The notes beneath the pieces are model-generated. The model was not told the DNA's origin, searched no databases, and saw nothing but the letters and a program-made list of their open reading frames with translations. Position numbers and translations under genes: made by a program. From NCBI GenBank assembly GCA_050633685.1, contig JBOEHA010000023.1, forward strand, positions 29,514 to 93,513: a stretch of 64,000 nt of DNA, in the 5' to 3' direction. Positions 20,754 through 37,444 of the stretch are shown here, piece by piece; positions within the stretch are counted from its first letter, which is position 1, and the number at the start of each line of letters is the position of its first letter. Origin of the DNA: Neptuniibacter sp. (GTDB taxonomy: Bacteria; Pseudomonadota; Gammaproteobacteria; Pseudomonadales; Balneatricaceae).

Positions 20754-20758
20754 GTTTT

Positions 20759-21067
20759 CTATTTAAGAGCATCAAGCGCTTTTTGCATTTTGTTAGCTTT
20801 AGAGAGGGTTTGCTTCTCTTTTACTAGTGATGTTTTAAATTTCTCAGCGAGTTGTTCTGCGTCACGGCTTAGCTTTCTTGCCTCAATAAGAAGATTGCGA
20901 ATAGTAGTCGCTTCCGCTTCAGCAACTTCAGCTATGGCGATTCGATTTACTGTCTCAGCGTAGCTCCCTTGTAGTTTCTCAATGGCGGCCCAGTCCTTTT
21001 CTTTAGCAGCATTGTTTATATCTTTGGCTTGAGAAAGTACTTGTTGGGCTAACTCTAAAACGCTCAT
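20759..21067 (-). CDS. Small helical protein, FliT-like
   Basis: 102 aa, all helical; A...DWAAIEKL and C-terminal K.QKAL resemble FliT; adjacent to fliC. Confidence 0.5.
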   Translation of the reverse strand: MSVLELAQQVLSQAKDINNAAKEKDWAAIEKLQGSYAETVNRIAIAEVAEAEATTIRNLLIEARKLSRDAEQLAEKFKTSLVKEKQTLSKANKMQKALDALK

Positions 21068-21299: not shown

Positions 21300-23066
21300 A
21301 TGGCAATGGTAATTAACTCAAACATTATGTCGCTGAACGCTCAGCGTAACCTGATGATCTCCCAGGGCGATCAGAACCAGGCGATGGAGCGTTTGTCTAG
21401 CGGTAAGCGTATCAACTCTGCAGCTGATGATGCAGCGGGTCTGGCAATCTCTAACCGTATGACCTCACAGGTTCGTGGTCTGGACCAGGCAATTCGAAAC
21501 GCTAACGACGGTATCTCTCTGATTCAAACTGCAGAGGGTGCACTGGATGAAACAACAAACATCCTGCAGCGTATGCGTGAACTGTCTATCCAGTCTGCCA
21601 ACGGTACTTACGATGATGGCAACCGTGCAACTCTGGATGCAGAGGTTCAGCAGCTGATTTCTGAGATCGACCGTATCTCTGAAACTACTAAGTTCAACGG
21701 TTTGAACATCCTTGATGGTACTCTGGGTAAAGTTGATCTGCAGGCGGGTGCAGATGCATACGAAACGATATCCTTGGAAATCGGTGCTACAAGTACAAAT
21801 AGCCTAGGTTCGGCCGCTTCTGCTGATGTTGTTGGTTACACAACAAGTAATGCAGGCGGTACTGATGCTGGTTCGTTTGCAGGTAGTGTAACGATTAATG
21901 GTCAGACATTGACTTCGACTGCTTTGAACGCTGCGACCAATATGGATGAATTCCTGGGTGTCATTAATGACGGCGTGGCTGGAGTTGAAGCAAGCTCGTT
22001 TGTTGAAGCTACGGCAACTGCAGTAGGTACAGGTATTTTGGCTACTGGTACGACTTTCCAGGTGCAAGTGACATTTAACGATGACACTACTGCTACATGG
22101 CAGGTTTCTGAAACTGCGAGTCTGGAAGAATTGGCAGATAAAATCACTAGTACGACAAATGGCGCAGTTGAAGCTTCAATTAACGATGAAGGTCGCTTGG
22201 TACTTTTTGCTCAAGATGCGACTCTGATTACAACAGTAGATGGATCAACTTCAGATGGAGCTTCCGGTATTACGGACGGAGCATTCGCTAACTCTATCCA
22301 GTTAACAGACACCCTTGGTGATAAAGCAATTACCATTGACTATGCATCTACTGGCGCTAGCCTCACTGCAGATTCTCAGCTACTTGGTTTAGATGAGCGT
22401 TTGACTGCAGGGGACGTGGTTGGTACCACAACGATGGTCGGTAGTACTGACTTCAACGATGGTGACGTTACCATCAATGGTGTAAATCTGGGGGCTTACG
22501 ACGCGAGTAACGACTATGATGGAACTCTAAGTGGTGCTGCTTCTTCGGATGCTAACTTGGTGAACTTCATCAACTTGAAGAGCGGTGAAACTGGTGTTGT
22601 TGCGTCTGTTGCTACCACAGATGGTATCGATCAACTGACTCTGAACTCAGTAGATGGATCTGAAATTAGTGTAGACTACCGCGAGTCTGTAGCTAGCACA
22701 ATGGAAGGCCTGTTGGGTATACAGCAGACCAACGTGGCAGCTGGATTCGGTAACTCTGTTGCAGATATTGATATCTCAACAGCAGCCGGTGCACAGGAAG
22801 CGATTGAAGTAATTGATACAGCTCTGGAGCAGATTAACTCGACTCGAGGTGACTTGGGTGCGATCAGTAACCGTCTGGACTTTACTATCAATAACCTGTC
22901 CAACGTATCTGAGAACGTAGCATCTGCCCGTTCACGTATCGAAGATGCTGACTTTGCTTCAGAATCTGCAGCGCTGTCCCGTGCACAGGTACTGCAGCAG
23001 GCTGGTACTGCGATGTTGGCTCAGGCTAATGCAGCGCCTCAGCAAGTACTGTCACTGCTTCAGTAA
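21300..23066 (+). CDS. fliC: Flagellin, 588 aa
   Basis: INSN..SLNAQRNL, RLSSGKRINSAADDAAGLAI, RSRIEDADFA.E, MLAQAN..PQ.VLSLLQ. Confidence 0.98.
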   Translation: MAMVINSNIMSLNAQRNLMISQGDQNQAMERLSSGKRINSAADDAAGLAISNRMTSQVRGLDQAIRNANDGISLIQTAEGALDETTNILQRMRELSIQSANGTYDDGNRATLDAEVQQLISEIDRISETTKFNGLNILDGTLGKVDLQAGADAYETISLEIGATSTNSLGSAASADVVGYTTSNAGGTDAGSFAGSVTINGQTLTSTALNAATNMDEFLGVINDGVAGVEASSFVEATATAVGTGILATGTTFQVQVTFNDDTTATWQVSETASLEELADKITSTTNGAVEASINDEGRLVLFAQDATLITTVDGSTSDGASGITDGAFANSIQLTDTLGDKAITIDYASTGASLTADSQLLGLDERLTAGDVVGTTTMVGSTDFNDGDVTINGVNLGAYDASNDYDGTLSGAASSDANLVNFINLKSGETGVVASVATTDGIDQLTLNSVDGSEISVDYRESVASTMEGLLGIQQTNVAAGFGNSVADIDISTAAGAQEAIEVIDTALEQINSTRGDLGAISNRLDFTINNLSNVSENVASARSRIEDADFASESAALSRAQVLQQAGTAMLAQANAAPQQVLSLLQ

Positions 23067-23157: not shown

Positions 23158-23532
23158 ATGGCAGATTCAATGAGTGTTACGGCTTCAGTCGTTGCTCCTT
23201 CGTCACAGCAGCCTCAGCAAGCTCAGCAGCCAGTAGTACGTAAGCCACCTGTGGAAGCGCCTAGCAATGAGCGGTTCCAGAAGCAGGCACAAGAGATACA
23301 AGATGTGTCTATGGAAAAGCTGGATGCTGCAATTGATCGCTTAAATGAGATGATGCAAAATAGCCAACGGTCTTTAAGTTATTCTGTTGATAAAGCATCT
23401 GATAAGGTTGTAGTCCAGGTGCGTGACTATACGACGGATCAGGTTATTCGGCAGATACCCACTGAAGAAGCGCTTAGGTTTGCAGAATCCTTAGATCGCA
23501 TGTTAGGCATGTTATTTGATCAAGAGGTCTGA
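23158..23532 (+). CDS. flaG: Flagellar protein FlaG
   Basis: L.YSVDK....VVQVRD..T.QVIRQIPTEE. Confidence 0.9.
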   Translation: MADSMSVTASVVAPSSQQPQQAQQPVVRKPPVEAPSNERFQKQAQEIQDVSMEKLDAAIDRLNEMMQNSQRSLSYSVDKASDKVVVQVRDYTTDQVIRQIPTEEALRFAESLDRMLGMLFDQEV

Positions 23533-23583
23533 ATAATTTAGGCCTCTTTATTAACCTCCCATAATTAACCAGAGGTGTTGGCG

Positions 23584-25686
23584 ATGAGTGATAGTATTAT
23601 TCGGTCACTGGGAGCCGGTTCTGGTATCGATACCACCAGTCTTGTTTCCAGCCTTGTTGAAATTGAAAGAGCGCCGAAGCAAAGTCGCTTAGATAATAAA
23701 CAGGAAACTCTGGAAGCACAGATCTCCGCATACGGTGTTCTAAAAAGCAGTCTTTCAGAATTACAGTCCTTTTTAGCCCCTTTAGCGGATAATGACACTT
23801 ATAATGCGCGTTCAGTATCGTTTACAGATAGTGAGGCCATTACCCCAAATGCCGTTGATCCCGGTGCACAAACAGGGACTTACCAGATAGAAGTTGTGGA
23901 TGTTGCTCAAGCGCAGTCCTTGGCTTCAGGTGCGTTCGCTGACAAAGATTCAGCGTTGAATGAGACCGGTACACTGACTATCAGTTTTGGTACCTGGACT
24001 TACGTTGCGGACGATACACACCTTCCTGCAGATGCTGACAGTAATGAGGATCCGGATAGTTTTGTTGTAAATGATGAGCGTGCTGCTCTAAATATTACAA
24101 TTGAAGCGGATGATACGCTGCAGGATCTGGCTGATAAAATTAATGATGAAGATGCCGGTTTGCAGGCATCAGTGCTATTGGTTGATGGTCAATACCAACT
24201 GATGATGACTGCACCATCAGGTGCCAATAATGCGATAAGAGTTACCAGTGATGATGCCACTAAAGGTGACACAACTGGCCTTAGTGTTTTTGAGTTTAAC
24301 GAGAGTGAGCACACTCAGGTAATCGAAACTCAACAGGCTCAAGATGCAGAGTTGAAAGTTAATGGGCTGACGGTTTTCCGTGAGACCAATGAAATCGATG
24401 ATGTTATCCAGGGCTTGAACTTTTCGCTGAATAAAAGTGATGCAGGTAATCCTGTTACATTTACGGTTTCTGAAGATACCTCAACCGCTGAGCAGTCAAT
24501 ACGAGATTTTGTAGAAGCCTATAACCTGTTTTATGAAACAGCACAGAGCTTGGTAGGTTATAGCGAAGACGCTGAAACAAATCAGACAACTAGAGGTGAT
24601 CTCGCTACAGACGGTACTGCTAAGACCTTAATCACTCGACTCCGTAATTCTATTGGCTCGCTGGTTCCAGGGGTCGAGACAGGTTTTACTGCATTAACCA
24701 ATGTTGGTATCCGAACTGAACTTGACGGTACATTGGCGATTGATGAAGACGACTTTTCCTCGGCAATGAATGAAAACTTTGATCTGGTGGAAACGCTCTT
24801 CGCGACGGATACCACTTCAACCAGTAATCAGGTAGACGTGTCGGCCGGTAGTTATGCCGGGGGTACGGTAGCGGGTAGTTATGAAGTAGTAGTAACTACA
24901 GATCCGGAAAAAGCTACGGTAGCCGTTGGTAATCCAACACCGGCATTCAGTTTTCCACTAACCATCGCTGAAGCGGATGCATCATATTCATTTGCGCTTA
25001 CTGTGGATGGAACCAAGAGTACAACAATTACGTTGACAGGCTCTTATTCATCGGAAGATGAAGTAGCATCAGCCTTGCAAGCGTTGATCAACGGTGATGT
25101 GAATATTGATAATGCCGGGGTTGGTGTTGATGTCTCTTTTGACAGCTTAAACAATAATTTTGTTTTTACTTCTCGTAGTTATGGGAACTCATCCAGTATC
25201 AACTTTTCGTCAGCAGACTTTGGCGTAAATGCGGGGCAGTTTGGTTTGGTAGCAGACTACAGTGATACCGGGGTGGATGCTGAAGGTACAATAGCTGGGG
25301 AAGATGCTTTTGGTTCGGGCAATATTCTTTTGCCGCCGATTGATTCAGATGCCTATGGCCTGAACTTTACTATAGGTGAAAATGCCGTTGCTGCAGGCAC
25401 TGTAACTACCAACTTCTCACGCGGTTTTGCTGGTGAGTTGAATGTATTAATTGATAGTTTCCTGGGCGGCTCAGGTAGTATTCAGTTGCGTGAGGATAAT
25501 ATCAGTGATTCGCTTAGCGAAATTGCGGATGACCAAGAAGAACTTGATCGCAAAATGGAAAAACTGGAGATTCGTTTAACGGCACAGTATCTTGCGATGG
25601 AACAGATTATCAGTAGCTTCCAAAGTACAGGCAATCAGCTGGATGGTATTCTTGAACGCCTCCCATTTACCGCAACAAATAATTAA
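23584..25686 (+). CDS. fliD: Flagellar filament cap protein
   Basis: SLGAGSGID, QISAYGVLKS, AQAQSLAS, AQDAELKVNGL, QYLAMEQII. Confidence 0.95.
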   Translation: MSDSIIRSLGAGSGIDTTSLVSSLVEIERAPKQSRLDNKQETLEAQISAYGVLKSSLSELQSFLAPLADNDTYNARSVSFTDSEAITPNAVDPGAQTGTYQIEVVDVAQAQSLASGAFADKDSALNETGTLTISFGTWTYVADDTHLPADADSNEDPDSFVVNDERAALNITIEADDTLQDLADKINDEDAGLQASVLLVDGQYQLMMTAPSGANNAIRVTSDDATKGDTTGLSVFEFNESEHTQVIETQQAQDAELKVNGLTVFRETNEIDDVIQGLNFSLNKSDAGNPVTFTVSEDTSTAEQSIRDFVEAYNLFYETAQSLVGYSEDAETNQTTRGDLATDGTAKTLITRLRNSIGSLVPGVETGFTALTNVGIRTELDGTLAIDEDDFSSAMNENFDLVETLFATDTTSTSNQVDVSAGSYAGGTVAGSYEVVVTTDPEKATVAVGNPTPAFSFPLTIAEADASYSFALTVDGTKSTTITLTGSYSSEDEVASALQALINGDVNIDNAGVGVDVSFDSLNNNFVFTSRSYGNSSSINFSSADFGVNAGQFGLVADYSDTGVDAEGTIAGEDAFGSGNILLPPIDSDAYGLNFTIGENAVAAGTVTTNFSRGFAGELNVLIDSFLGGSGSIQLREDNISDSLSEIADDQEELDRKMEKLEIRLTAQYLAMEQIISSFQSTGNQLDGILERLPFTATNN

Positions 25687-25712
25687 TTAGATTTATAGAT
25701 AAGGTGCCCTTG

Positions 25713-26114
25713 ATGAGTGTTAACTTGAACGCGTTGAAGCAGTATCAAAGTGTTGACTTGCGTGCGACAGTTGAGACGGCTTCGCCACACAAAATGGTAT
25801 CGATGCTGTTTGATGGTGTTTTAAAAGCTCTTGCAACAGCAAAAGGCTGCTGTGAACGAGCAGATATTGAAGGTAGATCGGCCTCAATTAATAAGGCTTC
25901 AGAAATTATCATAGGCTTAAAAGGGTGTTTAGACCTTGAACAAGGTGGAGAGGTCGCTCAGCGTCTTGATGAGCTATATGATTATTCACTCCGCCAGTTG
26001 TACCAGGCTAACAAGGAAAATAGTTCTGAGCTCGTACAGGAGATTATTGGTCTGATATCGGAGGTGAGCTCTGGCTGGAACGATATGCCTGTAGAATACA
26101 AAGTCGGAGAGTGA
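25713..26114 (+). CDS. fliS: Flagellar export chaperone FliS
   Basis: ASPHKMVSMLFDG, L.LEQGGEVA..L..LYDY. Confidence 0.95.
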   Translation: MSVNLNALKQYQSVDLRATVETASPHKMVSMLFDGVLKALATAKGCCERADIEGRSASINKASEIIIGLKGCLDLEQGGEVAQRLDELYDYSLRQLYQANKENSSELVQEIIGLISEVSSGWNDMPVEYKVGE

Positions 26115-26118
26115 TGAT

Positions 26119-27903
26119 TTGACCAGCAATGTGAGTGGTTTGGTCAAGCGTGCGACTCAGCTTGCCGCTGAATGCGAGAAAAAAAAAGACTTCAAGCAGG
26201 CTATCGAACTTTACATTAAGGCAATAAATTTAGAGCCTACAAACACCCTTGCAGTTACCTCGCTTTGCGCCATTTATTTTAATATGGGCAAGCATGACGT
26301 GGTGGAAAAAATTCTGCTGGGGGTTATCAAAATAGCGCCTAACAATTGTTACTTTTATTTCCAACTTGGAAAGCTTTATACGACACAACGACAATTTGAT
26401 AAGGCGATAGATCAATTCCTAAAATCCTTTAAGTTAAACAAAGATCTTAAAGAGAATTACCTCAACCTTGCTCACGCCTACGCTGAGAAACATGAATATG
26501 TGACAGCGCTGGAGTATGCTCAGGAGGGAATTAAAAAATATCCGGATTATGCCAAGCTATACAATAACATTGCTTATATTTTACGAGCTCTAGGCGATAT
26601 TGAGGGTGCTTTTAGGTATCAAGAGATTTCTGTTGATAAAAACCCTAGAGAATTTAGTTTGTTCAGTAATTACCTTTTCTATCTGTCTCAATCACCCTTT
26701 GTTTCGCCTGAAGAATATTTAGAAAAAGCTAAAGAGTATGGCTGTAGAGTGTCGCAAGGCATTAAACAATATGAGACTTGGCCAGGGTTAGCTTCAAAAG
26801 AAAAACTGCGTATTGGTTTTGTTTCAGGTGACTTACGCAATCATCCGGTCTCGTTCTTTATTGAAAACTGGCTAGGGTTGATTGATAAAACTAAGTTTGA
26901 ATTGGTTGCTTATTACAATTTTTCTCAAAATGATGAGAAAACATTGAGTTTGCACTCGATGTTCTCTGAGTGGTATCCGGTGACTGCGTTATCAGACGCA
27001 GAACTTGCAGAAAAGATTCACAAAGACCATATCCATATCCTGATTGATTTATCGGGTCATACTGCACATAACAGATTACCCGCATTTGCATGGAAACCCG
27101 CACCAATACAGATTAGCTGGGTGGGTTTTCCTACGAGTACCGGTTTGGAGCAGATGGATTACATGATGCCAAATCGGAATATGTCTCCTCCAGAATTCGA
27201 TCATCACTATCTTGAAAAACAGTGGTATTTACCTTCAGCTGGTTGTTTAAAGCCACCCGAAGTTGATATTGATGTGAATGATCTACCAGCCATTAAAAAC
27301 AGATATATAACGTTTGGTAGTTTCCACAGTGTTACTAAGCTAACAGATCAGGTGCTAACAACTTGGAGTGAGATATTAAAGCGGCTTCCAGATTCTAAAA
27401 TTTTATTTAAATGTAAAGAGCTAAAAGAGCTGAAAACCCAAGAGGTACTGTTGGAAAAAATGGTTAACTTGGGGATTGAGCCAGATAGAATTCTTATAGA
27501 GGGACCCTGTCCGCTACAAGAATACTTTAAGGCTTATCATTCTATTGATATAGGCTTAGACCCATTCCCATATAATTCAGGAACTGTTGGTTATCACAGT
27601 GTCTGGATGGGTGTTCCATATGTAGCGTTAGCGGGTGATCGGTTGCTTTCCAGAGTGGGCTATTCAAATATCCAGTTGGTAGGGCTTGAGCAATTTGCAG
27701 CCGAAAGCATTGAAGAATATATTCAGATAGCAGTTGATGTCGCATCCGATTTGGAAAATTTACAAAGCATTAGGCAAAAGCTCAGACAAACCTCTTTAGA
27801 TTCAGGTTTGTATGATGGCAGTAAAATGGCTTTAGATCTGGAAACAGCTTTTGAAAGTATGTGGCAGCAGTTTCTGAATAATAACGATAATACAGATAAA
27901 TAA
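26119..27903 (+). CDS. TPR plus GT41 (OGT/SPINDLY-like) glycosyltransferase, putative flagellin glycosyltransferase
   Basis: N-terminal TPRs, then LRIGFVSGDLRNHPV, ILIDLSGHT..NRL, PAPIQISWVGFP.STG, FGSF, DIGLDPFPYN, MGVP; TTG start 4 nt after fliS. Confidence 0.88.
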   Translation: MTSNVSGLVKRATQLAAECEKKKDFKQAIELYIKAINLEPTNTLAVTSLCAIYFNMGKHDVVEKILLGVIKIAPNNCYFYFQLGKLYTTQRQFDKAIDQFLKSFKLNKDLKENYLNLAHAYAEKHEYVTALEYAQEGIKKYPDYAKLYNNIAYILRALGDIEGAFRYQEISVDKNPREFSLFSNYLFYLSQSPFVSPEEYLEKAKEYGCRVSQGIKQYETWPGLASKEKLRIGFVSGDLRNHPVSFFIENWLGLIDKTKFELVAYYNFSQNDEKTLSLHSMFSEWYPVTALSDAELAEKIHKDHIHILIDLSGHTAHNRLPAFAWKPAPIQISWVGFPTSTGLEQMDYMMPNRNMSPPEFDHHYLEKQWYLPSAGCLKPPEVDIDVNDLPAIKNRYITFGSFHSVTKLTDQVLTTWSEILKRLPDSKILFKCKELKELKTQEVLLEKMVNLGIEPDRILIEGPCPLQEYFKAYHSIDIGLDPFPYNSGTVGYHSVWMGVPYVALAGDRLLSRVGYSNIQLVGLEQFAAESIEEYIQIAVDVASDLENLQSIRQKLRQTSLDSGLYDGSKMALDLETAFESMWQQFLNNNDNTDK

Positions 27904-27967
27904 GATAGGTTTAGCAGGTATTTAACCTTTCTTTATCTGTTATACAAATACTTAGAATTGATCTTTG

Positions 27968-29095
27968 ATGAAGCATCCTTTTTATCGCCCAGCCGCTCTC
28001 AATACAACTCGCCTGGTTCAGTACCTGGAAGAGATTAATGAAAGACGGTGGTACACAAATAATGGACCTCTGATTCGTCAGTTGACGGAGAAACTCGAAG
28101 ACTATCTTGGGGTTAAAAATCTGTTATTGGTGTCCAGTGGAACGGTAGCACTACAAGTCGCATATAAAGCATTACATCGAAAGGGAAGAATTTACACGAC
28201 TCCCTTGAGCTTTATCGCAAGTTCAAGTGCATTCGGTTGGTTGGGAAGTGAGATCCATTATGCAGATATCGATAACCAAACGCTGAATCTGGATCCGGAA
28301 TCTGTAAGAAATTCTTTGGATTTAACTGCGGACGATACGATTGTAGCCACTCACCTGTACGGCAATCCGTGCGATATAAACGCCTTTGAAAACTTAAAGA
28401 ACGAAACGCAATGTAAAATTATTTATGATGCGTCCCATGCGTTTGCGACCCGGTTTCAGGGGCAGAATATTCTTAACCTGGGCGATGCTTCGACGGTTAG
28501 TTTTCATGCTACAAAGCTGTTCCATACTATTGAAGGTGGTGGTGTAATCTTTGCAGATGAGGATGATCTGGCTCGAGCCCAGAAAATGATTAACTTCGGT
28601 TTCAATCAGAAAAACGAAATAGAAGAGATTGGTATCAACGCTAAAATGAGTGAGCTTCATGCCGCAGTAGGTTTGGTTGTGTTGGAGGAGCTTGATGCAA
28701 TTATTGAACAACGTTGTGCTATTGCAGATCAATACCGTTCGATTCTCGATCAGACAGATATAGCTACGACAGTGATCCAGGAAGGAACTGATATTTGTTC
28801 ACCCAGTTATATGCCGATTGTGCTTGCGAGTGCTAAAGAGAGGGAGTTACTCCAGGCCAGTATGCTTCATGACGGTATTGAAACAAGAAACTATTTTGAT
28901 TCCTTGCAATCCACCACGGAATTGTTTGAGGGGTCTCATAAAGTTCTTCCAAACTCCCAGCGTTTTAATAAGCGCGTTTTATGCCTTCCCCTTTATCCTG
29001 AACTAACTTCTGCCGATATAACTTATATATGTGATCGTTTGCGATTTAATCTGGAGAACATCAGATCTGAAGAGCAAGTATGCTGTGCACAGTAA
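27968..29095 (+). CDS. DegT/DnrJ/VioA-type PLP sugar aminotransferase
   Basis: WYTNNGP, ATHLYGNPC, IYDASHAF, SFHATKLFHTIEGG, GINAKMSE, LCLPLYP. Confidence 0.9.
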   Translation: MKHPFYRPAALNTTRLVQYLEEINERRWYTNNGPLIRQLTEKLEDYLGVKNLLLVSSGTVALQVAYKALHRKGRIYTTPLSFIASSSAFGWLGSEIHYADIDNQTLNLDPESVRNSLDLTADDTIVATHLYGNPCDINAFENLKNETQCKIIYDASHAFATRFQGQNILNLGDASTVSFHATKLFHTIEGGGVIFADEDDLARAQKMINFGFNQKNEIEEIGINAKMSELHAAVGLVVLEELDAIIEQRCAIADQYRSILDQTDIATTVIQEGTDICSPSYMPIVLASAKERELLQASMLHDGIETRNYFDSLQSTTELFEGSHKVLPNSQRFNKRVLCLPLYPELTSADITYICDRLRFNLENIRSEEQVCCAQ

Positions 29096-29166
29096 CAGAT
29101 CATTTCCTGGTTCTTTAAACCAGTGTGCTTATTGTCACGCTGATTGAAATGAGTGGTATGCATTCA

Positions 29167-30219
29167 ATGTTGAAGGTGGTTGTGGTGGGCCCAGGACTTA
29201 TGGGTCGTCAACACATAGAGCTTCTTGCTTCTACAAATGATGCTTGTTTATCAGGTATCGTTGCACCTGCTTCAGATAAAAATATGCAATATGCTGAAGA
29301 GCTGGGCGTGTCTTTTTTTTCAGACCTAAGAGCTTGTATCGAACAGGTTCAACCAGCCGGTGTTATCATCTCTAGCCCCAATGAATTCCACGCAGAGCAA
29401 GCAGCTATATGTGTGGAAAACCGGATTCCTTTTCTGTTGGAAAAGCCGCTGGCGACAACTCAGGATGAAGGCCGGGAGTTGCTGGATATAGTACTCAAGG
29501 CAGAGTTTCACGGTAATGCAATGGTGGGCCATCACCGTTCCCATGGTGCAATTATCAAGAAATCATCAGATCTAATTGATAGTGGAATCTTGGGTCGTTT
29601 AGTTGCTGTCCAAGGAAGTGCACAATTTTTCAAACCCCATAGTTACTTCGTTCAGGGGCCATGGCGAAGCAAGCTTGGTGGCGGCCCCATTCTTCTGAAT
29701 ATGATTCATGAAATTAGTAACCTCAGGGCGCTGTTGGGGGAGATTGAATCGGTACAGGTGATCGCGTCTTCAGATGTAAGGAACACAGAGGTGGAAGATA
29801 CAGCTGTCATCAACTTACGTTTTGAATCAGGCACTTTAGGTTCTTTTGTTTTGTCGGATTGTACCGCGTCATCAAAAAGCTGGGAGATGACTTCTGGTGA
29901 AAACCCCAGTTACCCTTTTTTCCCTAATGAATATTGCTATGTGCTTGCTGGTACGAAAGGAACCCTAGAAATTCCATCTATGGTGATCAAAGCATATGGG
30001 GAAGAGAAAGTAGCCTCGTGGATGACATCTTTTGAAGAATCGCGAGCGGGCTTAGATCGAGTGGATCCGCTGGAAAAACAGATTGCAGAATTTGTCGAGC
30101 TGATGAAAGGTGAAACAACGCCAACAGTAACGATTCAGGACGGCTACAGGAACCTGGCTGTGGTCGAGGCGATCAAGCGTGCCGCTGAAAATGGCTCTCT
30201 GGAAAAAGTCGAGTATTGA
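29167..30219 (+). CDS. Gfo/Idh/MocA family NAD(P)-dependent oxidoreductase
   Basis: VVGPGLMG, SPNEFH, LLEKP, VGHHR, GGGPIL..MIHEI; start uncertain (29125-29167). Confidence 0.88.
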   Translation: MLKVVVVGPGLMGRQHIELLASTNDACLSGIVAPASDKNMQYAEELGVSFFSDLRACIEQVQPAGVIISSPNEFHAEQAAICVENRIPFLLEKPLATTQDEGRELLDIVLKAEFHGNAMVGHHRSHGAIIKKSSDLIDSGILGRLVAVQGSAQFFKPHSYFVQGPWRSKLGGGPILLNMIHEISNLRALLGEIESVQVIASSDVRNTEVEDTAVINLRFESGTLGSFVLSDCTASSKSWEMTSGENPSYPFFPNEYCYVLAGTKGTLEIPSMVIKAYGEEKVASWMTSFEESRAGLDRVDPLEKQIAEFVELMKGETTPTVTIQDGYRNLAVVEAIKRAAENGSLEKVEY

Positions 30220-30221
30220 TT

Positions 30222-31367
30222 ATGGGTGAAAAAGTTCTGTTGGTTGATACTGGCTTTTCAGCTCAACCGATCTATCAATCCATTCAGAAACTAGACTTTG
30301 ATGTCCATGTAGTGGGAGGTCGTCCGGAAGATCCGTTGGCTAAAACGGCCGAGCAATACTGGTGTTTGGATTACTCTGATACTGACAAGTTAGCTGAGTT
30401 GGTTAGACGGGAAGAATACAGATTTATCGTACCGGGCTGCACAGATCGTTCTTACACATCCTGTTCTGTAGTCAGCGAAAGGCTGGGCTTTCCTGGAATA
30501 GAATCACCAGAGAATGATGCCCAGATCAATCTGAAAGACAAATTTAGAAATTTGTCGGAAAGGTTGGGTGTTCCTATTCCTGCGGTGCAAAAACAATCAG
30601 CGGATCTATCCTTTCCGATGATTGTAAAGCCGGTCGATGCCTTCAGTGGAAACGGTATTACAGTAGTGCATCGTCCAGAGCAATTGAACGAGGCGGTAGA
30701 GTTAGCGAGAAACTGCTCGCCATCACAAAATTATGTTTGTGAAGAGTATCTGCAAGGCCAGCTATACAGCCACTCAGCTTTCGTGAAAAGTGGCAAAGTG
30801 GCGGTGGATTTTATAGTGCGCGAAGACTCCACCGCTTATCCTTTTGCGGTTGATTTGAGTTATGTGGAATCTGATTACCCAGAGGCTCTTTTGGGTGAAA
30901 TGCGTCAATCCATAGAATCCATCGTAGCTGAGTTGAACCTGTTGGATGGATTGATTCATACGCAGTTTATTCAGACGGATGGGCGGGTTTATCTGATTGA
31001 AATGACCCGAAGGTGCCCCGGTGATTTATACAGCTCGTTGATAGAGCTTCAAACCGGTTTTGCCTATACAGATAATTATGTGCGGCCTTTTTTAGGCCTA
31101 GAGATAGAGCCGGTGCAACCGAGCCAAACAGATTGTGCAGTAGTCAGGCATACAGTTTCTTCCAAGAGTGCTACCGCGTTTAATGGCATTCGATATCTGG
31201 AAACTACACAGATGGAGAAATGGGTGCCTTTAGCTGTCACAGGTGAGCAGCTTCTGCCAAGCCCGAAAGGTCGTATTGGGATTGCGTTTATGCGCTGCGT
31301 AGGTCCATCTGAACTAGAAAAATTGTACGGCACGCTTTTACGCCGTGAGCTATATGAACTGTTTTAA
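30222..31367 (+). CDS. ATP-grasp fold protein
   Basis: KDKFR, PMIVKPVDAFSGNGIT, CEEYLQG, GLIHTQF, YLIEMTRRCPG. Confidence 0.85.
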   Translation: MGEKVLLVDTGFSAQPIYQSIQKLDFDVHVVGGRPEDPLAKTAEQYWCLDYSDTDKLAELVRREEYRFIVPGCTDRSYTSCSVVSERLGFPGIESPENDAQINLKDKFRNLSERLGVPIPAVQKQSADLSFPMIVKPVDAFSGNGITVVHRPEQLNEAVELARNCSPSQNYVCEEYLQGQLYSHSAFVKSGKVAVDFIVREDSTAYPFAVDLSYVESDYPEALLGEMRQSIESIVAELNLLDGLIHTQFIQTDGRVYLIEMTRRCPGDLYSSLIELQTGFAYTDNYVRPFLGLEIEPVQPSQTDCAVVRHTVSSKSATAFNGIRYLETTQMEKWVPLAVTGEQLLPSPKGRIGIAFMRCVGPSELEKLYGTLLRRELYELF

Positions 31368-31418
31368 ACAAATGACCAGCCGAGTCAGATAGCTGTTCTT
31401 TGAACTAAGAGGTTATTC

Positions 31419-33281
31419 TTGAAGATACTAGCGATTAACTTTGGGCATGATGCCAGCCTGGCTCTTTATGAAGATCAGAAGCTAACTTCGTTTTTGGAGC
31501 TGGAACGTGTTACTCGGCTGAAACACACTGTGGGTGTCAGCCGCTCAGATGTTGTCGGCTTTCTGCAAGCTAACTCTCTACGTTGGCAGGACCTGGAGTT
31601 TGTCGCTTTGGTTGGTACCCAGTGGTACAAAGCTAAGCATTCCGATGACATTGTTATTGAAGAGTCTGATGCTGAGTTCTCTGTTTTGAAAGACCATGGG
31701 GTTAAGACGGAAGCTGACAGTGAGGTTGGTGGTACCGATAAATGGTACGACTACGCGCATCATCAGAACCGCTTAGGAGAGGTTACCCAAACAGAGTTTC
31801 CGTTGGATGCTGTTTCAGGAGGCGTTTGCGACTTAGGTAAGTTTTCTATAGATCAGGTGGGAATTGATCCCTACAAAACGGTTTATCCATATTCGATTGA
31901 AATTGATGGCATAAAATTACCTGCTGCTTTTGTTCCTCACCAGATAGCTCATGCCGCCTATGGTGCATTCTATCGCTCTCCAGAAAAAGAGAAGGCGATT
32001 ATCCTAAGCCATGATGGCGGTTGGCCACATATCCCGTTTAATTCGGGCGGTATTTTTTTATATCAGAATGACACGATCTGTCCTGTGTTAGACCCCAGAA
32101 TGTTCTTGGGTCAGCTGTATCAAATCATGGGCGAAAGAGCGGGGTTTCGCCCGTCAGAGGCTCCGGGCAAACTGATGGGGCTAGCTTCTTACGGTATTCC
32201 AGAGCCTGCTGGGTTGACCAAACTGTCCCAGGTTTTAGAAGGCTTGGCAGAAAAATGTGCAGAGATATCTGCCGAGCAATTCCATGTGAAATTTGCTCAG
32301 CTTTGTGACCTGATCGAAGCGGAAGCGCCTAACGTCTATGTGCGCGAAGGGGCTAAGCAGTATGATTTCAGCTTTGAGAATGTGCGTGCCTCGATTGGCA
32401 TTGCTGCCTACACACAAAAGTTGGTTGAAAACATGTGGGCAGGAAAAATGTCGGTGCTGCTGGAGTCTATCGCAGATCGCTATGAGGTTGCCGATAGTGT
32501 GGCAGTGGTCGGGGGCTTTTCGTTGAACTGCCCAAGCAATAGCTTATTGCAGTCCTCGCTGACATCTTTAAAGGTAAAACCGTTACCTGGTGGATCCGAT
32601 ATGGGAGTTTCAATTGGAGCCGGGGCGTTGCTAGTGTCTTTCCTTACAGGGAAATTCCCATGTAATGATCAACAAAACCCTTTATCTCCTGCCTTTCCTC
32701 CCAGGCCTGATATTTTTGAATGTGATGTGCCTCAATCACTTAAGGCAATGGAGCTTGATGATCCGCTGGGTTTTTATGCGACTCAGTTGGTGGAAGGGAA
32801 AATTTTCTGTCATGTGGAAGGTGAATCTGAAGTGGGTCCACGGGCGTTAGGGCATAGGTCAATTATTGCTCATGCGGCAAATGGAGCAGTTCGAGATCGT
32901 ATTAATCAATGTAAAGGCCGTGAAATGTGGCGTCCATTAGCGCCTATTGTGCGTGCTTGTGATCTGCCAAAATTCTTTGAAGGTCCTGATGCCGGGGAGA
33001 TGTCACGTTTTATGTTGTCTACCTATAGGGTTATTAACCCTAAACAGTTGCCGGCCGTTACTCATGTGGATCAGACTGCCAGAACGCAAATGGTAGAGGG
33101 CGGTACGATTTCAGATTTGTTGGATCGGCTTTCTGAAGTGAGTGATATTCCGGTGATTGTGAATACGTCGTTTAATGTAGCAGGAGAGCCATTGGTGGAA
33201 AATTTGCGGCAGGTATCAGACAGCTTTGAAAAATTAAACTTCGATTTTATATATATCAACGGTTCTATTTATCGCCTATAA
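31419..33281 (+). CDS. Carbamoyltransferase (NodU/CmcH/TobZ family)
   Basis: HDASLA, HQIAH (metal HxxxH), SHDGG, GKLMGLASYG, GGFSLNC, SDMG, EVGPRALGHRSI, KGRE.WRPLAP, HVD.TARTQ, NTSFN. Confidence 0.92.
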   Translation: MKILAINFGHDASLALYEDQKLTSFLELERVTRLKHTVGVSRSDVVGFLQANSLRWQDLEFVALVGTQWYKAKHSDDIVIEESDAEFSVLKDHGVKTEADSEVGGTDKWYDYAHHQNRLGEVTQTEFPLDAVSGGVCDLGKFSIDQVGIDPYKTVYPYSIEIDGIKLPAAFVPHQIAHAAYGAFYRSPEKEKAIILSHDGGWPHIPFNSGGIFLYQNDTICPVLDPRMFLGQLYQIMGERAGFRPSEAPGKLMGLASYGIPEPAGLTKLSQVLEGLAEKCAEISAEQFHVKFAQLCDLIEAEAPNVYVREGAKQYDFSFENVRASIGIAAYTQKLVENMWAGKMSVLLESIADRYEVADSVAVVGGFSLNCPSNSLLQSSLTSLKVKPLPGGSDMGVSIGAGALLVSFLTGKFPCNDQQNPLSPAFPPRPDIFECDVPQSLKAMELDDPLGFYATQLVEGKIFCHVEGESEVGPRALGHRSIIAHAANGAVRDRINQCKGREMWRPLAPIVRACDLPKFFEGPDAGEMSRFMLSTYRVINPKQLPAVTHVDQTARTQMVEGGTISDLLDRLSEVSDIPVIVNTSFNVAGEPLVENLRQVSDSFEKLNFDFIYINGSIYRL

Positions 33282-33294
33282 CACAGGCCGGATT

Positions 33295-33915
33295 ATGAAA
33301 ACATTTACTGCGAATAATATTAATATTTATTTCCATCCAAACCATAACGGTGGGGGTATGGATTTTGGACAGGACTATATCAAAGTTATAGCTCAACGTT
33401 ATGGGAAGCCTTTTAATAAGGTTTATGAGTTTTGTTCAGGCCCAGGGTTTATTGGCTTCTCATTGTTGGGGGCTGGCCAAGCAGAGCATCTGATTTTGTC
33501 TGACCTTTATGAGCCATTGAATGAAGTGATCGAAAAAACGGTCGAAAGTAATGGGTTAGAAGGGCGTGTGAATTTTTACAATATGCCAGGTGTAAAGGAA
33601 CTACCGGAGGGAGAAATTGATTTAGTTGTTTCCAATCCGCCCCATTTTTTAACAGAGCAAAGTTGGTTGGGGCATATTGAAAACCGGATTTATATCGATG
33701 AGAACTGGGAAGTCCATAGGGAGTTCTATCATAACATTGCCTCCAAATTGTCTGATGATGGCATCGTTCTATTTCAGGAAAATGCATTAGGTTCAGGTTT
33801 GCATGACTTTGAGCTGATGATATCCGAGGGTGGGCTACAAGTGACTGATGTGTTTTCCATGGAAAATAGGGTTGGGAATGATCAGATCTATTATATCGAG
33901 GCAAAAAAGTGCTAG
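33295..33915 (+). CDS. Class I SAM methyltransferase, HemK/MTS-like
   Basis: EFCSGPGFIG (motif I) and DLVVSNPPHF (NPP motif). Confidence 0.8.
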   Translation: MKTFTANNINIYFHPNHNGGGMDFGQDYIKVIAQRYGKPFNKVYEFCSGPGFIGFSLLGAGQAEHLILSDLYEPLNEVIEKTVESNGLEGRVNFYNMPGVKELPEGEIDLVVSNPPHFLTEQSWLGHIENRIYIDENWEVHREFYHNIASKLSDDGIVLFQENALGSGLHDFELMISEGGLQVTDVFSMENRVGNDQIYYIEAKKC

Positions 33916-33924
33916 GTGGTATGA

Positions 33925-34860
33925 GTGTCTAAGGTGGAAGTGCCTAATAAGGCATTAAAACAGTTGTACATTAAGAACGATCTATACGCAGCTGTCCATG
34001 TCGGGTTGCACCTTTCGTTGTTCCTGTTTTTTTTTGCTGGAAGTTGCTACCTAATTGATAAAGGCGATTTTCTCGCAGCATTTATATGTCTGATTGCGAC
34101 GGGGTTTCTGGGGAATTTTTTGGGCTGGTCAGGTATTGGTCATGAGTTATTGCATGAAACAGTTTTTAGTAGTCGTAAATTAAACCGTTTTTTGGTTAGA
34201 GCATTTGCGATTTATTTATGGAATAACTGGGCATACCATCAAATCAGTCATCGCATCCATCACCGTTCAACCATGCTTACTGGTGTGGATTTTGAATTTG
34301 ATCCTAATCAAAAACACCTGGAGCGATGGGATGTTTTTATCTCAGTTACTTTTAATTATAAATTTCTTGGCAGAGCATTAAGGAACACCCTTGAAAATGC
34401 ATTTGGAACCGTTAATGGTGGGTTTGCCTCATTATATATTCTGAATAATGATGAGAACTACAGAAAGGTAGTAAGTGCTGCGAGACTGATACTTTTGGCC
34501 CATTTCTCTATATTTTTGATAGCCTGGGCAGTCGATTTTGTTGCCATTTCAATGGTTTTTAGCCTAAGCCCTTTTATGTGTAACTTGTTTTCAAGAATCC
34601 TAGCATTGTCACAACATTTTGGTATGGAAGTTGATGTTAATGATCCCAGAAGAACAAGCCGCTCTATCACAATTCCTCGTTGGCTGGAGTTCTTCTATGC
34701 AAATATGAACTACCATGTTGAACATCATATTTATGCGGGTATCCCTTTTTATAATTTGCCTAGGGCTAGAAAGCTTCTTGAGGATCAACTGCCTGAAGCT
34801 CTGAATTTGAAGGATGCTATTCAGTTGGCACTAAACCCACCCCAAAAAAGTACAACGTAA
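33925..34860 (+). CDS. Membrane di-iron fatty-acid-desaturase-like protein
   Basis: Three His boxes HELLH, HRIHH and HVEHH with hydrophobic segments; IPFYNLP. Confidence 0.85.
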   Translation: MSKVEVPNKALKQLYIKNDLYAAVHVGLHLSLFLFFFAGSCYLIDKGDFLAAFICLIATGFLGNFLGWSGIGHELLHETVFSSRKLNRFLVRAFAIYLWNNWAYHQISHRIHHRSTMLTGVDFEFDPNQKHLERWDVFISVTFNYKFLGRALRNTLENAFGTVNGGFASLYILNNDENYRKVVSAARLILLAHFSIFLIAWAVDFVAISMVFSLSPFMCNLFSRILALSQHFGMEVDVNDPRRTSRSITIPRWLEFFYANMNYHVEHHIYAGIPFYNLPRARKLLEDQLPEALNLKDAIQLALNPPQKSTT

Positions 34861-35891
34861 TGAATCTATTAGTTTTTCCATCTGATAACGTAGATGAAGA
34901 ACGGTTTTATCTGTTGAATAGAGTGGGGGTGGAGATCGTTCCTGCAAGCTCATCCCTAAGTCACTTATTCTTAGGTAAGACAGTAAATTTTTTACCGTAT
35001 GTTACCGATAAGGTATTTGTACAGGCATTCACTCGTTTGGTAGTTGAAAAAAACATTACGCACTTTTATACGGAGCATGCGGGGGTATGGGGTGTTATAG
35101 ATTCGTTATTAAAACAATCTGATGAATTACAGTTTGAACTTGTGGCGGACTTCCCATTTGATTCAACGTGGCAAGAATTTGAGAAATATTCATTATGGGC
35201 CGATGCGGTTAATAATTCTGAGTCATTGTTAGGTGGTACAAGGCTGGACAAAGATAGTTTGGCATCATTATGCCAACGGTATAATCAGATACCCGGCCAA
35301 TCTGATAATGTGAAGCTTGAAGCATTGGTCAATCTGGCAACTTCTATTCCTGAAGGCGATTGGGTGGAAATAGGGGCTTTATATGGAAGGTCTTCTTATG
35401 CTTTGGGGGTGCTTGCGGGTTACAACAATTCCAAATTAATCTGTATTGATCCCTGGGATGCTTTGAAGGTTCGGCCACAACAGGGTAAAGCGTCTATTTT
35501 GGATAGTCAGTCAGACCTGATAGATAACACTAAAATATTTAATGTTTTTCGATCTTCAATCGCGTTGTTGAGTAATACTTCTTATATCCGTAGCCTCTCA
35601 GAAGATGCTTTGCCACGATATCTAACATCTGATTTTGATGGCAGATCAGTCACGATAAATAAAAGTATCTCTTTTCTGCATATTGATGGTAATCATCATT
35701 ACGACGAGGTGAGCAAAGATATTGCTTTATGGGAACCTCATGTCTGTGTTGGAGGCTGGATAGCTGTCGATGATTACCTCTGGGCTTTTGGTGATGGGCC
35801 TAAGAAGGCGGGGGATAATTTACTTAGAACCGGTCGCTTTGATGAGGCGTTCGTGTCTGGTGATACGCTGTATATGCGTAAGGCTTTTTGA
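34860..35891 (+). CDS. Methyltransf_24-like SAM methyltransferase with extra N-terminal region
   Basis: VEIGALYGRSS, IDPW, FLHIDGNHHY..V..D, GGWIAVDDY. Confidence 0.8.
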   Translation: MNLLVFPSDNVDEERFYLLNRVGVEIVPASSSLSHLFLGKTVNFLPYVTDKVFVQAFTRLVVEKNITHFYTEHAGVWGVIDSLLKQSDELQFELVADFPFDSTWQEFEKYSLWADAVNNSESLLGGTRLDKDSLASLCQRYNQIPGQSDNVKLEALVNLATSIPEGDWVEIGALYGRSSYALGVLAGYNNSKLICIDPWDALKVRPQQGKASILDSQSDLIDNTKIFNVFRSSIALLSNTSYIRSLSEDALPRYLTSDFDGRSVTINKSISFLHIDGNHHYDEVSKDIALWEPHVCVGGWIAVDDYLWAFGDGPKKAGDNLLRTGRFDEAFVSGDTLYMRKAF

Positions 35892-35952: not shown

Positions 35953-36004
35953 TTTTTGGTATTCTAAGGCCACTATAATCAAAAAGTTAAACGAGACGTG
36001 ATTG

Positions 36005-37444
36005 ATGTCAGATTCGCCTCAAGTTCTCATCATTGATGATGACCTAACCCGGCGCGATGTATTGGAAGCTTCCCTTGCGTTTCTGGATCAGAAGTGCAGA
36101 TTTTTCAGCTTTGTGGATTGGCTGCAATCGGTTCAGGATAAAGAGAATGTTCCATCGATTAAGTTGATTTTGCTGGGGCAGAGTCAATTGCCTTTGTCAC
36201 TTGAAAAAATCATTGGCGACCTTGCTGATCAGTACCCTACCTCTGCAATTATCACGATCGGTGAATGGAATGAAGCGGCAAGCCTTCCCGATGAAATCGG
36301 TGCTCGTTTGGTTGGGCAGTTGCAGTTGCCTCTCAACTACCAGCAGGTTTTGGATTGTTTTCATAAAGCACAAATCTACCGTGGTTCACTGATTTCAAAA
36401 TCATCCGCCAGTGATTCAGCAGAACTTTTTGCCTCTCTGGTGGGTAATAGTGAGTCGATGGTTCAGGTTCGTTCCTCTATGCAGAAGGTTGCTGGGAGGG
36501 ATGTGAATGTCATGATCACAGGTGAGTCTGGTACAGGCAAGGAAGTTGTCGCGCGTAACCTGCATGATCACTCTGTTCGAAAGAACGGTCCATTTGTTCC
36601 CATCAACTGTGGGGCAATACCAGCAGATCTTCTTGAAAGTGAACTCTTTGGTCATGAAAAAGGCGCTTTTACTGGAGCGGTGAGTAGCCGGCCAGGTCGA
36701 TTTGAGTTGGCGCAAGGGGGGACTCTGTTTCTGGACGAAATCGGGGATATGCCTCTGCCGATGCAGGTCAAACTTTTGCGGGTCCTTCAGGAGCGTAAGT
36801 ATGAAAGGATCGGCGGTAGTAAAACGCTTGAAGCTGATGTCCGGGTGATTGCGGCCACGCATAAAAACCTAGAGGATATGATCGTTTCCGGGGAATTCAG
36901 GGAGGATTTGTATTATCGCTTGAATGTCTTTCCTATCGAGATGCCACCACTTCGTCAAAGAATTGAAGACTTACCGCTGTTGCTGGAAGAATTACTGGAA
37001 AGACTAAAACAGCAGGGGCTGGATTCTGTAAAACTGCACGCCAGTGCGATTGAATCCCTGAAAAAGCATTCATGGCCGGGCAATGTCCGTGAACTTTCAA
37101 ATCTGTTGGAAAGGCTCGCTATTGTATATCCTGACGGAGTGGTGGGTGTGTCAGAGTTGCCCGCGAAATTTCAGTATATAGATGAGCCTGATCCCGAAAG
37201 ATATAAGGTAATTGAGAATGGTGAGTCAGGTAGTGCTGATGTGTTGTCTTCGGCACCCTCACTGGATCTTTTGCCGGAAGGAGGTGTTGACCTAAAAGAG
37301 CATCTGGAACTGATCGAAAAATCACTTATCGAGCAGGCGCTAAGCCGAAATTCTGGTGTGGTTGCCAGAGCTGCTGAGACGTTACAGATCCGAAGGACTA
37401 CCTTGGTTGAAAAAATGCGTAAGTTCGGGATACAGCGGAAATAA
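36005..37444 (+). CDS. fleQ: Flagellar master regulator FleQ/FlrA
   Basis: Atypical N-terminal domain; [48 protein letters not shown]. Confidence 0.93.

Follow-up and report, generated by a model that had tools for sequence, protein, structure and literature searches.

Viosamine-type flagellin glycans are known from Pseudomonas syringae, a-type Pseudomonas aeruginosa and Burkholderia (VioA/VioB, Fgt). In Dickeya dadantii 3937 the cluster Dda3937_03424-03419, which lies within the flagellar region and has been linked to flagellin glycosylation, combines a GT41 'O-GlcNAc transferase' with a nucleotide-sugar transaminase, an oxidoreductase, a methyltransferase and a protein of the ATP-grasp family that bears the annotation carbamoyl phosphate synthase; the FliC mass of 32,170 Da falls to 28,890 Da in one glycosyltransferase-gene mutant and to 31,034 Da in the other (PMC6637903). 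Enterobacterial flagellin islands that combine GT41 transferases with DegT aminotransferases and methyltransferases are common, hypervariable between and within species, and carry the hallmarks of horizontal transfer (De Maayer and Cowan 2016, PMC4875605). In Clostridioides difficile the type B locus CDR20291_0244-0247 encodes an ATP-grasp 'carbamoyl-phosphate synthetase-like' enzyme and a DegT-family aminotransferase, which are implicated in forming a peptidyl-amido sugar on flagellin (PMC5207246). Here we describe an eight-gene block in a 64,000-nucleotide stretch of Neptuniibacter sp. DNA (contig JBOEHA010000023.1, positions 29,514 to 93,513; hereafter the window). The block is most likely a flagellin glycosylation island, a known kind of system, with modification of the flagellin itself predicted from the genes.

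Motility, recognition by phages and predators, and surface chemistry are all influenced by the glycans on flagellin, and the islands that make these glycans hold unexplored sugar chemistry. We consider it probable that this block is a horizontally mobile flagellin O-glycosylation island occupying the fliS-fleQ spacer of Neptuniibacter and acting by the pathway proposed below, the chemistry of which is deduced from the enzyme families.

An eight-gene block at a variable flagellar site

The earlier note on this DNA had described eight co-oriented, tightly spaced genes between fliS and fleQ, assigned a domain to each and taken them for a flagellin glycosylation island. Its coordinates proved exact: the listing of open reading frames (ORFs) gives eight intact, co-oriented ORFs on the + strand at 26119-35891, with intergenic gaps of -4 to 61 bp, and a Pfam scan returned a domain call for each of the eight proteins that agrees with those assigned. 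All eight ORFs have the lengths of their homologues and none is truncated, and a terminator scan gave no strong candidate within the block. Pfam calls on the flanks give the gene order fliC-flaG-fliD-fliS-island-fleQ-fleS-fleR, and the first island gene, encoding a glycosyltransferase of family GT41 with TPR repeats, starts 4 bp past the fliS stop. The assignment to flagellin glycosylation is likewise upheld by the flagellar position, the fliS-linked GT41 gene and the variability of this site in the genus.

That variability was followed in a sample of 22 same-genus genomes. A full-length GT41 homologue is present in eight (33-82% identity), and it directly adjoins fliS in all seven of the islands that were fetched, with the genes after it differing strongly from island to island. 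Eight genomes without a GT41 gene were examined for the fliS-fleQ spacer; in six of them only about 200 bp separate fliS from fleQ, in a seventh the spacer holds other content of about 7 kb, and in the last no fleQ lay within the 20 kb fetched. Because six same-genus genomes show a fliS-fleQ spacing of only about 200 bp, the block is an insertion and not a chance run of ORFs.

Two of the relatives illustrate how the content turns over. In genome G020 the island holds DegT, a Gfo/Idh/MocA oxidoreductase (hereafter GFO) and ATP-grasp genes together with a class III aminotransferase, an FkbM methyltransferase, an iron alcohol dehydrogenase and a Methyltransf_24 protein (MT24), and its FleQ, of which a 298 aa part was fetched, shares 98% identity with that of the window. 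In G007 the order is rmlB-rmlA-DegT-GFO-ATP-grasp, followed by a GT2/radical-SAM fusion and MT24. Homologues of the window's MT24 (57-63% identical) adjoin fleQ in other same-genus islands, and the carbamoyltransferase is found in none of the 22 genomes, which gave one weak match only (2e-17). The G+C content of the island is 42.6% versus 45.5% for the 3.49 Mb genome, and is lowest in the GT41 gene (38.9%) and the last three genes (39-41%). The block thus shows three features by which flagellin glycosylation islands are recognized, namely a flagellar position, a GT41-type transferase, and variability among relatives with signs of horizontal transfer; the variability and transfer signs match the published hallmarks of such islands (PMC4875605). 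Elsewhere in the genus, the island of G004 (L103 11140-14472) carries three sulfotransferases, WbqC, DegT, rmlA and rmlB after its GT41 gene, and its flagellin glycan may be sulfated. The island of G005 (L105 6466-9089) has a similar layout by homology, with three middle ORFs that were not domain-scanned.

The best PDB match of the GT41 protein is Arabidopsis SPINDLY, with which residues 12-586 align at 1e-88; OGT comes next. SPINDLY is a protein O-fucosyltransferase, the donor of which is a 6-deoxyhexose. The presumed acceptor, FliC, is the sole long flagellin of the genome, and its central region is 24% Ser+Thr. A second, far shorter flagellin-like gene lies distant from the island on genome contig C25 (about 219745-220542); its product shows 44% identity at the N terminus (157 residues) and 41% at the C terminus (88 residues). 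Coordinates of the island and its flanks are collected in Table 1.

Table 1. The island, its flanking flagellar genes and their positions in the window.
Feature	Position	Strand	Evidence
fliC, flagellin, 588 aa, presumed acceptor protein	21300..23066	+	Flagellin_N/C domains
flaG-fliD-fliS, upstream boundary of the island	23158..26114	+	Pfam FlaG, FliD_N/C, FliS
TPR + GT41, SPINDLY/OGT-like, presumed flagellin glycosyltransferase	26119..27903	+	Glyco_transf_41 3e-53 + TPRs
Pyridoxal phosphate (PLP) sugar aminotransferase, DesI-like, presumed nucleoside diphosphate (NDP)-4-keto-6-deoxyhexose 4-aminotransferase	27965..29095	+	DegT_DnrJ_EryC1 4e-77
Gfo/Idh/MocA NAD(P) oxidoreductase (GFO), sugar C-3 dehydrogenase-like	29125..30219	+	GFO_IDH_MocA N + C domains
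ATP-grasp carboxylate-amine ligase, presumed amino-sugar N-acylating enzyme	30216..31367	+	ATP-grasp_4/3
NodU/CmcH/TobZ-family carbamoyltransferase	31419..33281	+	Carbam_trans_N + Carbam_trans_C
MTS/HemK-like S-adenosylmethionine (SAM) methyltransferase, NPPH motif	33295..33915	+	MTS 3e-07
Integral-membrane di-iron FA_desaturase-superfamily oxygenase	33925..34860	+	FA_desaturase 6e-34
Methyltransf_24 (MT24), extra N-terminal domain, presumed metal-dependent sugar O-methyltransferase	34860..35891	+	Methyltransf_24 3e-16
fleQ, downstream boundary of the island	36002..37444	+	FleQ + Sigma54_activat + HTH_8; 110 bp past MT24 stop

On the flanks, the longest fleS ORF runs 89 bp into the end of fleQ (37356-37444), and the true fleS start is probably downstream. 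Divergent from fliC, on the - strand at 19386-21067, lie a PAS-containing sigma-54 activator and a FliT-like gene. Three sigma-54 enhancer-binding proteins, this activator, FleQ and FleR, are therefore encoded less than 20 kb from the flagellin gene.

A proposed route to the flagellin sugar

The likely product, as predicted from the enzyme families, is an N-acylated 4-amino-4,6-dideoxyhexose carrying O-methyl and O-carbamoyl groups on flagellin Ser/Thr. In the route we propose, chromosomal rmlA/rmlB, sited elsewhere, would provide deoxythymidine diphosphate (dTDP)-4-keto-6-deoxyglucose, which the DesI-like aminotransferase would convert to a dTDP-4-amino-4,6-dideoxyhexose of the viosamine type. 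The ATP-grasp enzyme would then join this amine, as an amide, to a free carboxylic or amino acid in place of a VioB-type acyltransferase, so performing the task that falls to VioB, an acyl ligase and a carrier protein together in the type B cassettes described below. The GFO may oxidise or reduce a hydroxyl or keto group of either the sugar or the acyl group. MT24, which resembles NovP, MycF and MeT1, would O-methylate one sugar hydroxyl, and the TobZ/NovN-like enzyme would O-carbamoylate the other at the expense of carbamoyl phosphate and ATP; a 4-acylamido-4,6-dideoxyhexose has two free hydroxyls, hence one for MT24 and the other for the carbamoyltransferase, as with NovP and NovN on noviose. 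The HemK-like methyltransferase and the di-iron oxygenase, working as a pair, would between them introduce a methyl group together with either a hydroxyl or a double bond, the acyl side chain being the probable site; alternatively, the oxygenase could make the hydroxyl that is later carbamoylated. Finally the TPR-GT41 protein, as the single transferase, would move the finished nucleotide-sugar to Ser/Thr of the FliC central domain in the cytoplasm, before export.

It should also be considered that the island, while still modifying flagellin, might make a 3-amino sugar from uridine diphosphate N-acetylglucosamine (UDP-GlcNAc) or its uronic acid (UDP-GlcNAcA), in which case the GFO would oxidise C-3, the DegT enzyme transaminate and the ATP-grasp enzyme acylate the 3-amine, following WlbA/WbpE or GnnA/GnnB logic with no Rml enzymes. 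We regard this as unlikely, and the evidence bears on it from both sides. The best PDB match of the aminotransferase, in which the PLP lysine is present (SFHATK), is the 4-aminotransferase DesI (2po3, 169 bits, 1e-48), versus about 120 bits and 1e-34 for WbpE (121 bits) and other non-DesI aminotransferases; WbpE, the enzyme suited to the 3-amino route, is nonetheless among the next-best matches. The GFO leans towards that route, for its best PDB matches are 3q2i (2e-19) and 3q2k (1e-17), which we take to be WlbA UDP-GlcNAcA 3-dehydrogenases, and NCBIfam lists, below cut-off, inositol 2-dehydrogenase and UDP-GlcNAc 3-dehydrogenase. This similarity is weak (73 bits), however, and the GFO gene of type B cassettes is flanked by those for the acyl ligase and the carrier protein, pointing to a role on the acyl group. 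GFO and DegT genes are adjacent in every case, as a 3-dehydrogenase and its aminotransferase would be. Genes rmlA/rmlB, for which such a route has no use, lie in or beside the cassette at five independent loci (L011, L094, G007, G343 and G125), although the trio at pilin loci of Dyella and Stenotrophomonas has no rmlA/rmlB in the 20 kb fetched.

For the 4-amino route that we favour, the dTDP-sugar precursor would be supplied in trans, since the window's own genome carries rmlBACD on contig C7 (6762-10140). In enterobacterial islands rmlB is often provided from elsewhere in the genome (PMC4875605). The trio of DegT, GFO and ATP-grasp genes was found in 3 of 400 sampled gammaproteobacterial genomes, near rmlA/rmlB in two of these. 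The ATP-grasp protein matches the PurD-like protein 4dim and the L-amino-acid ligase 3vot in the PDB, and PylC and PurT in NCBIfam, both below cut-off. It has 1723 homologues (E <1e-10), many near 47-50% identity, and adjoins DegT and GFO in every locus inspected. Pfam finds no Hexapep or GNAT acyltransferase, acyl carrier protein or ketosynthase among the eight island proteins. As a source of carbamoyl phosphate for the transferase, the ATP-grasp enzyme was considered and rejected, its family occurring in many cassettes that lack a carbamoyltransferase. The trio is also present in type IV pilin loci of Dyella terrae CP089414.1 (L107 7747-11152) and Stenotrophomonas sp. (L108 7739-11164), beside pilin, PilB/C/D, flippase, GT2 and PMT_2-like genes, which suggests that pilin glycans are made there with the same N-acyl amino-sugar module.

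The assignment of MT24 to sugar O-methylation comes from its predicted fold. A Foldseek search with the AlphaFold2 model (predicted local distance difference test, pLDDT, 81.6) returned MeT1 (6e-10) and then SpnH, MycF, NovP and CalS11 (about 5e-8 to 6e-7); in the fold alignment NovP and MT24 are about 17% identical. CalS11 is a TDP-rhamnose O-methyltransferase. Six homologues all keep D197, D276, D304 and D305, which may be metal ligands.

Several points pull against the pathway as we have drawn it. The aminotransferase scores 225 bits with NCBIfam PLP_DesI, below the equivalog cut-off of 650, and C-4 regiochemistry is not readable from its sequence. The closest relatives of the GFO are 3-dehydrogenases, the usual partners of 3-aminotransferases, so that the amine may sit elsewhere than at C-4. 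It is also odd for a soluble nucleotide-sugar pathway to include an enzyme of the integral-membrane desaturase type. The same sugar cassette occurs in non-flagellar contexts, polysaccharide-like at L094 and L095 and in the Dyella and Stenotrophomonas pilin loci, and consequently the assignment to the flagellum rests on position and on the GT41 gene. Lastly, the likeness of the GT41/aminotransferase/ATP-grasp/oxidoreductase/methyltransferase core to that of Dickeya is matched by published annotation only.

The carbamoyltransferase and its partners in other loci

The carbamoyltransferase has the family architecture of a Kae1-like N domain and a YrdC-like C domain, with metal and nucleotide motifs kept, and its PDB matches are 7xb6, TobZ (9e-35), GdmN and NovN (94 bits). 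In an alignment of 32 sequences H174, H178, D199, D394, R475, R480, S481, K499, R501, N582, S584 and N586 are invariant. That its acceptor is a sugar hydroxyl we infer only from the sugar-cassette context. A sugar cassette is present in all nine other loci with a carbamoyltransferase at least 43% identical, whereas at 39% identity it is present in L114 and absent from L014 and L099. Including the window there are 11 cassette loci, four of which (the window, L011, L012 and L013) lie beside fliC, and the cassettes of L094 and L095 lie among GT1/GT2 and polysaccharide genes. A profile scan of genome contigs with the carbamoyltransferase gave at least 79 loci, none of those listed with the cassette, the closest among the matches listed being 39% identical; used as a control, the 79 listed species-representative loci with a carbamoyltransferase at most 39% identical contain no FA_desaturase and no flagellar genes, and one MTS.

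Two versions of the sugar cassette accompany the transferase. Type A (the window, L011, L094, L095 and L115) consists of DegT, GFO and ATP-grasp. Type B, found in L012, L013, L097 and L113, combines DegT with a VioB/NeuD-type acyltransferase, an AMP-forming ligase, a different GFO and a small carrier protein. An oxidative enzyme accompanies the carbamoyltransferase in every cassette described, but its kind varies as well. The carbamoyltransferase is joined by MTS and the FA_desaturase-like enzyme in the window, L012, L094, L095 and L115, by MTS, PhyH and radical-SAM/SPASM in L011 and L113, and in L013 and L097 radical-SAM/SPASM is the only oxidative enzyme. In L011, a metagenome contig with its island at the same fliS-fleQ site, the first five genes are 85-94% identical to those of the window and the tail is swapped for radical-SAM/SPASM, a divergent MTS, a PhyH oxygenase, MT24 (57%), rmlA and rmlB. 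The idea that radical-SAM is an anaerobic stand-in for the di-iron enzyme is weakened by L011 and L113, which pair radical-SAM with the O2-dependent PhyH. Next to fliC in L012 (17110-18936) and L013 (16584-18419) the transferase is HMW1C/NGT-like (NCBIfam N-glucosyltransferase 4e-62) and not TPR-GT41, which hints at N-linked or HMW1C-style flagellin glycosylation there; L012 also has a FliB-like lysine methylase.

The MTS enzyme has one close structural relative, the unpublished PDB entry 9l4q_A (3.5e-33 over the full length), and its PrmC/HemK matches in NCBIfam are below cut-off. In the loci inspected its partner is always an O2-dependent hydroxylase of one of two unrelated folds, so MTS and oxygenase appear to share one substrate, and the exchange of di-iron enzyme and PhyH beside it looks like non-orthologous displacement. 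The PhyH protein of the L011/L113 type matches a 'sporadic carbohydrate cluster' oxygenase family. In the di-iron enzyme, for which 30 homologues were detected, the His boxes H73/H77, H109/H112/H113 and H264/H267/H268 are invariant, and the AlphaFold2 model (pLDDT 94.9), a confident membrane model, fits the four-helix membrane core of the desaturase/hydroxylase superfamily. The model matches the fold of a desaturase-like chain in 8xks/8xqw and, weakly, SCD1; by sequence this protein has no match in the PDB. Its NCBIfam matches, GntB (9e-15, 55 bits against a cut-off of 380) and DesB (1.5e-13), are far below cut-off. GntB is a free-arginine hydroxylase. No lipid genes were found in the context of the di-iron enzyme.

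These observations also bear on whether all eight genes serve one glycan. The HemK-like enzyme might instead methylate Gln or Lys of flagellin, and, separately or in addition, the desaturase-like enzyme might act on a membrane lipid, both being passengers in the island. The named proteins nearest to MTS are indeed PrmC and PrmB, which methylate glutamine in proteins, and lysine methyltransferases give a weak match; FliB-type flagellin lysine methylases are present in related loci, L012 among them, and the desaturase superfamily acts mostly on lipids. We nevertheless think such passengers quite improbable. The MTS-oxygenase pair accompanies the carbamoyltransferase in the non-flagellar loci L094, L095 and L115, and in L011 and L113 a soluble PhyH takes the place of the di-iron enzyme with MTS kept; because the pair is found in non-flagellar cassettes and MTS survives the replacement by PhyH, a shared small-molecule substrate is indicated. 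That the island serves a non-flagellar product (lipopolysaccharide O-antigen, capsule, pilin glycan or a free aminoglycoside-like metabolite) and adjoins fliS only incidentally is very unlikely, for although the cassette is found in polysaccharide-type and pilin loci elsewhere and a carbamoyltransferase with a sugar O-methyltransferase is classic antibiotic tailoring (cf. NovN/NovP), Pfam finds no flippase, polymerase, initiating transferase, oligosaccharyltransferase or exporter in the island, the sole transferase is a cytoplasmic TPR-GT41 protein glycosyltransferase, its gene abuts fliS here and in 7/7 relatives, and the same carbamoyltransferase clade lies beside fliC in L011, L012 and L013.

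Returning to flagellin as the acceptor, we propose that the carbamoyltransferase, methyltransferase and oxygenase form an exchangeable sub-module set on a core common to other islands of the genus. A bolder extension, which we offer tentatively and would not presume, is that these three enzymes are a self-contained, horizontally exchanged module adding a substituent undescribed on protein glycans, and that this flagellin would be the first carbamoylated one. Candidate substituents are an O-carbamoyl beside a hydroxylated, methylated N-acyl chain, or an N-methyl-carbamate. The oxygenase slot of such a module would be held interchangeably by a membrane di-iron or a soluble 2-oxoglutarate (PhyH) enzyme, with radical-SAM/SPASM in some versions, and if this is true a desaturase-fold enzyme would act as hydroxylase of a soluble sugar-linked substrate. 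Separately, a natural-product-like locus of an Actinomycetota metagenome-assembled genome (L070, 2523-17443) encodes a peptidyl carrier protein-thioesterase, a thioesterase, MTS, a transketolase, a short-chain dehydrogenase/reductase, a GMC oxidoreductase, a carbamoyltransferase (31%), two B12 radical-SAM proteins and a GT1; its MTS is 46% identical to PDB 9l4q, and the pairing of MTS with a carbamoyltransferase thus also exists outside glycan cassettes.

Comparison with known systems

The pathway proposed for the window resembles the viosamine systems in that it too would build a 4-amino-4,6-dideoxyhexose from dTDP-4-keto-6-deoxyglucose, N-acylated, O-methylated and carried on flagellin Ser/Thr, with the island beside fliC. 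They differ at the acylation step, where viosamine systems use a VioB-type left-handed beta-helix acyltransferase with acyl-CoA or acyl-ACP donors and the window has an ATP-grasp enzyme in that place. We know of no carbamoyl group in viosamine-type flagellin glycans. The proposal of the earlier note, an amino-sugar with ATP-grasp-ligated acyl or aminoacyl, carbamoyl, methyl and oxidised or desaturated groups, agrees with the enzymes predicted here.

In novobiocin biosynthesis NovP is the 4-O-methyltransferase and NovN the 3-O-carbamoyltransferase of noviose. The likeness to the window lies in a TylF/NovP-fold O-methyltransferase and a NodU/CmcH-family carbamoyltransferase acting on a 6-deoxyhexose derived from dTDP-4-keto-6-deoxyglucose; the novobiocin enzymes, however, belong to a Streptomyces antibiotic pathway, act on an aglycone-bound sugar and have low sequence identity to those of the window. 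The Dickeya cluster has a second glycosyltransferase and is sited between fliA and fliC, whereas the window has one transferase and lies between fliS and fleQ; a carbamoyltransferase, a HemK-like methyltransferase and a desaturase-like enzyme are not reported in Dickeya, and the window has all three. The C. difficile type B locus shares an ATP-grasp enzyme and a DegT-family sugar aminotransferase with the window and differs in its Gram-positive host, GT2 transferases, rhamnose-containing oligosaccharide, 3-amino (FdtB-like) aminotransferase and lack of a carbamoyltransferase. Most enterobacterial GT41 enzymes have a fused methyltransferase domain that the window GT41 lacks, and the words carbamoyl, ATP-grasp and desaturase are absent from the main text of the enterobacterial survey (PMC4875605).

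In the literature we found no carbamoyltransferase and no membrane di-iron or desaturase-fold enzyme described in a flagellin island, and searches on carbamoyl or carbamoyltransferase with flagellin glycosylation led only to primary-metabolism enzymes (aspartate/ornithine carbamoyltransferase, carbamoyl-phosphate synthase) or to such annotations of ATP-grasp proteins. The earlier note had called the combination unfamiliar, which holds for the carbamoyltransferase and the di-iron enzyme, unreported in flagellin islands, and fails for the core, which by annotation has a counterpart in D. dadantii. Its further suggestion of a new system has to be given up, as GT41 islands are common (PMC4875605), a core of like annotation is linked to flagellin glycosylation in Dickeya (PMC6637903), an ATP-grasp enzyme is found with an aminotransferase in C. 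difficile (PMC5207246) and the trio is widespread (1723 ATP-grasp homologues). The locus opens no new class of system and answers no long-standing question. It does offer a compact, eight-gene, single-transferase test case that could show how N-acylation of an amino-sugar passes from acyl-CoA-dependent enzymes to an ATP-grasp ligase, and also which roles a carbamoyltransferase of the NodU type, a HemK-like methyltransferase and an oxygenase of the desaturase fold take on a protein glycan. The module map over flagellin, pilin and polysaccharide loci shows which of these genes form one functional unit. Set beside the described systems, the core of the island is known and only the carbamoyltransferase/MTS/di-iron module is rare and new.

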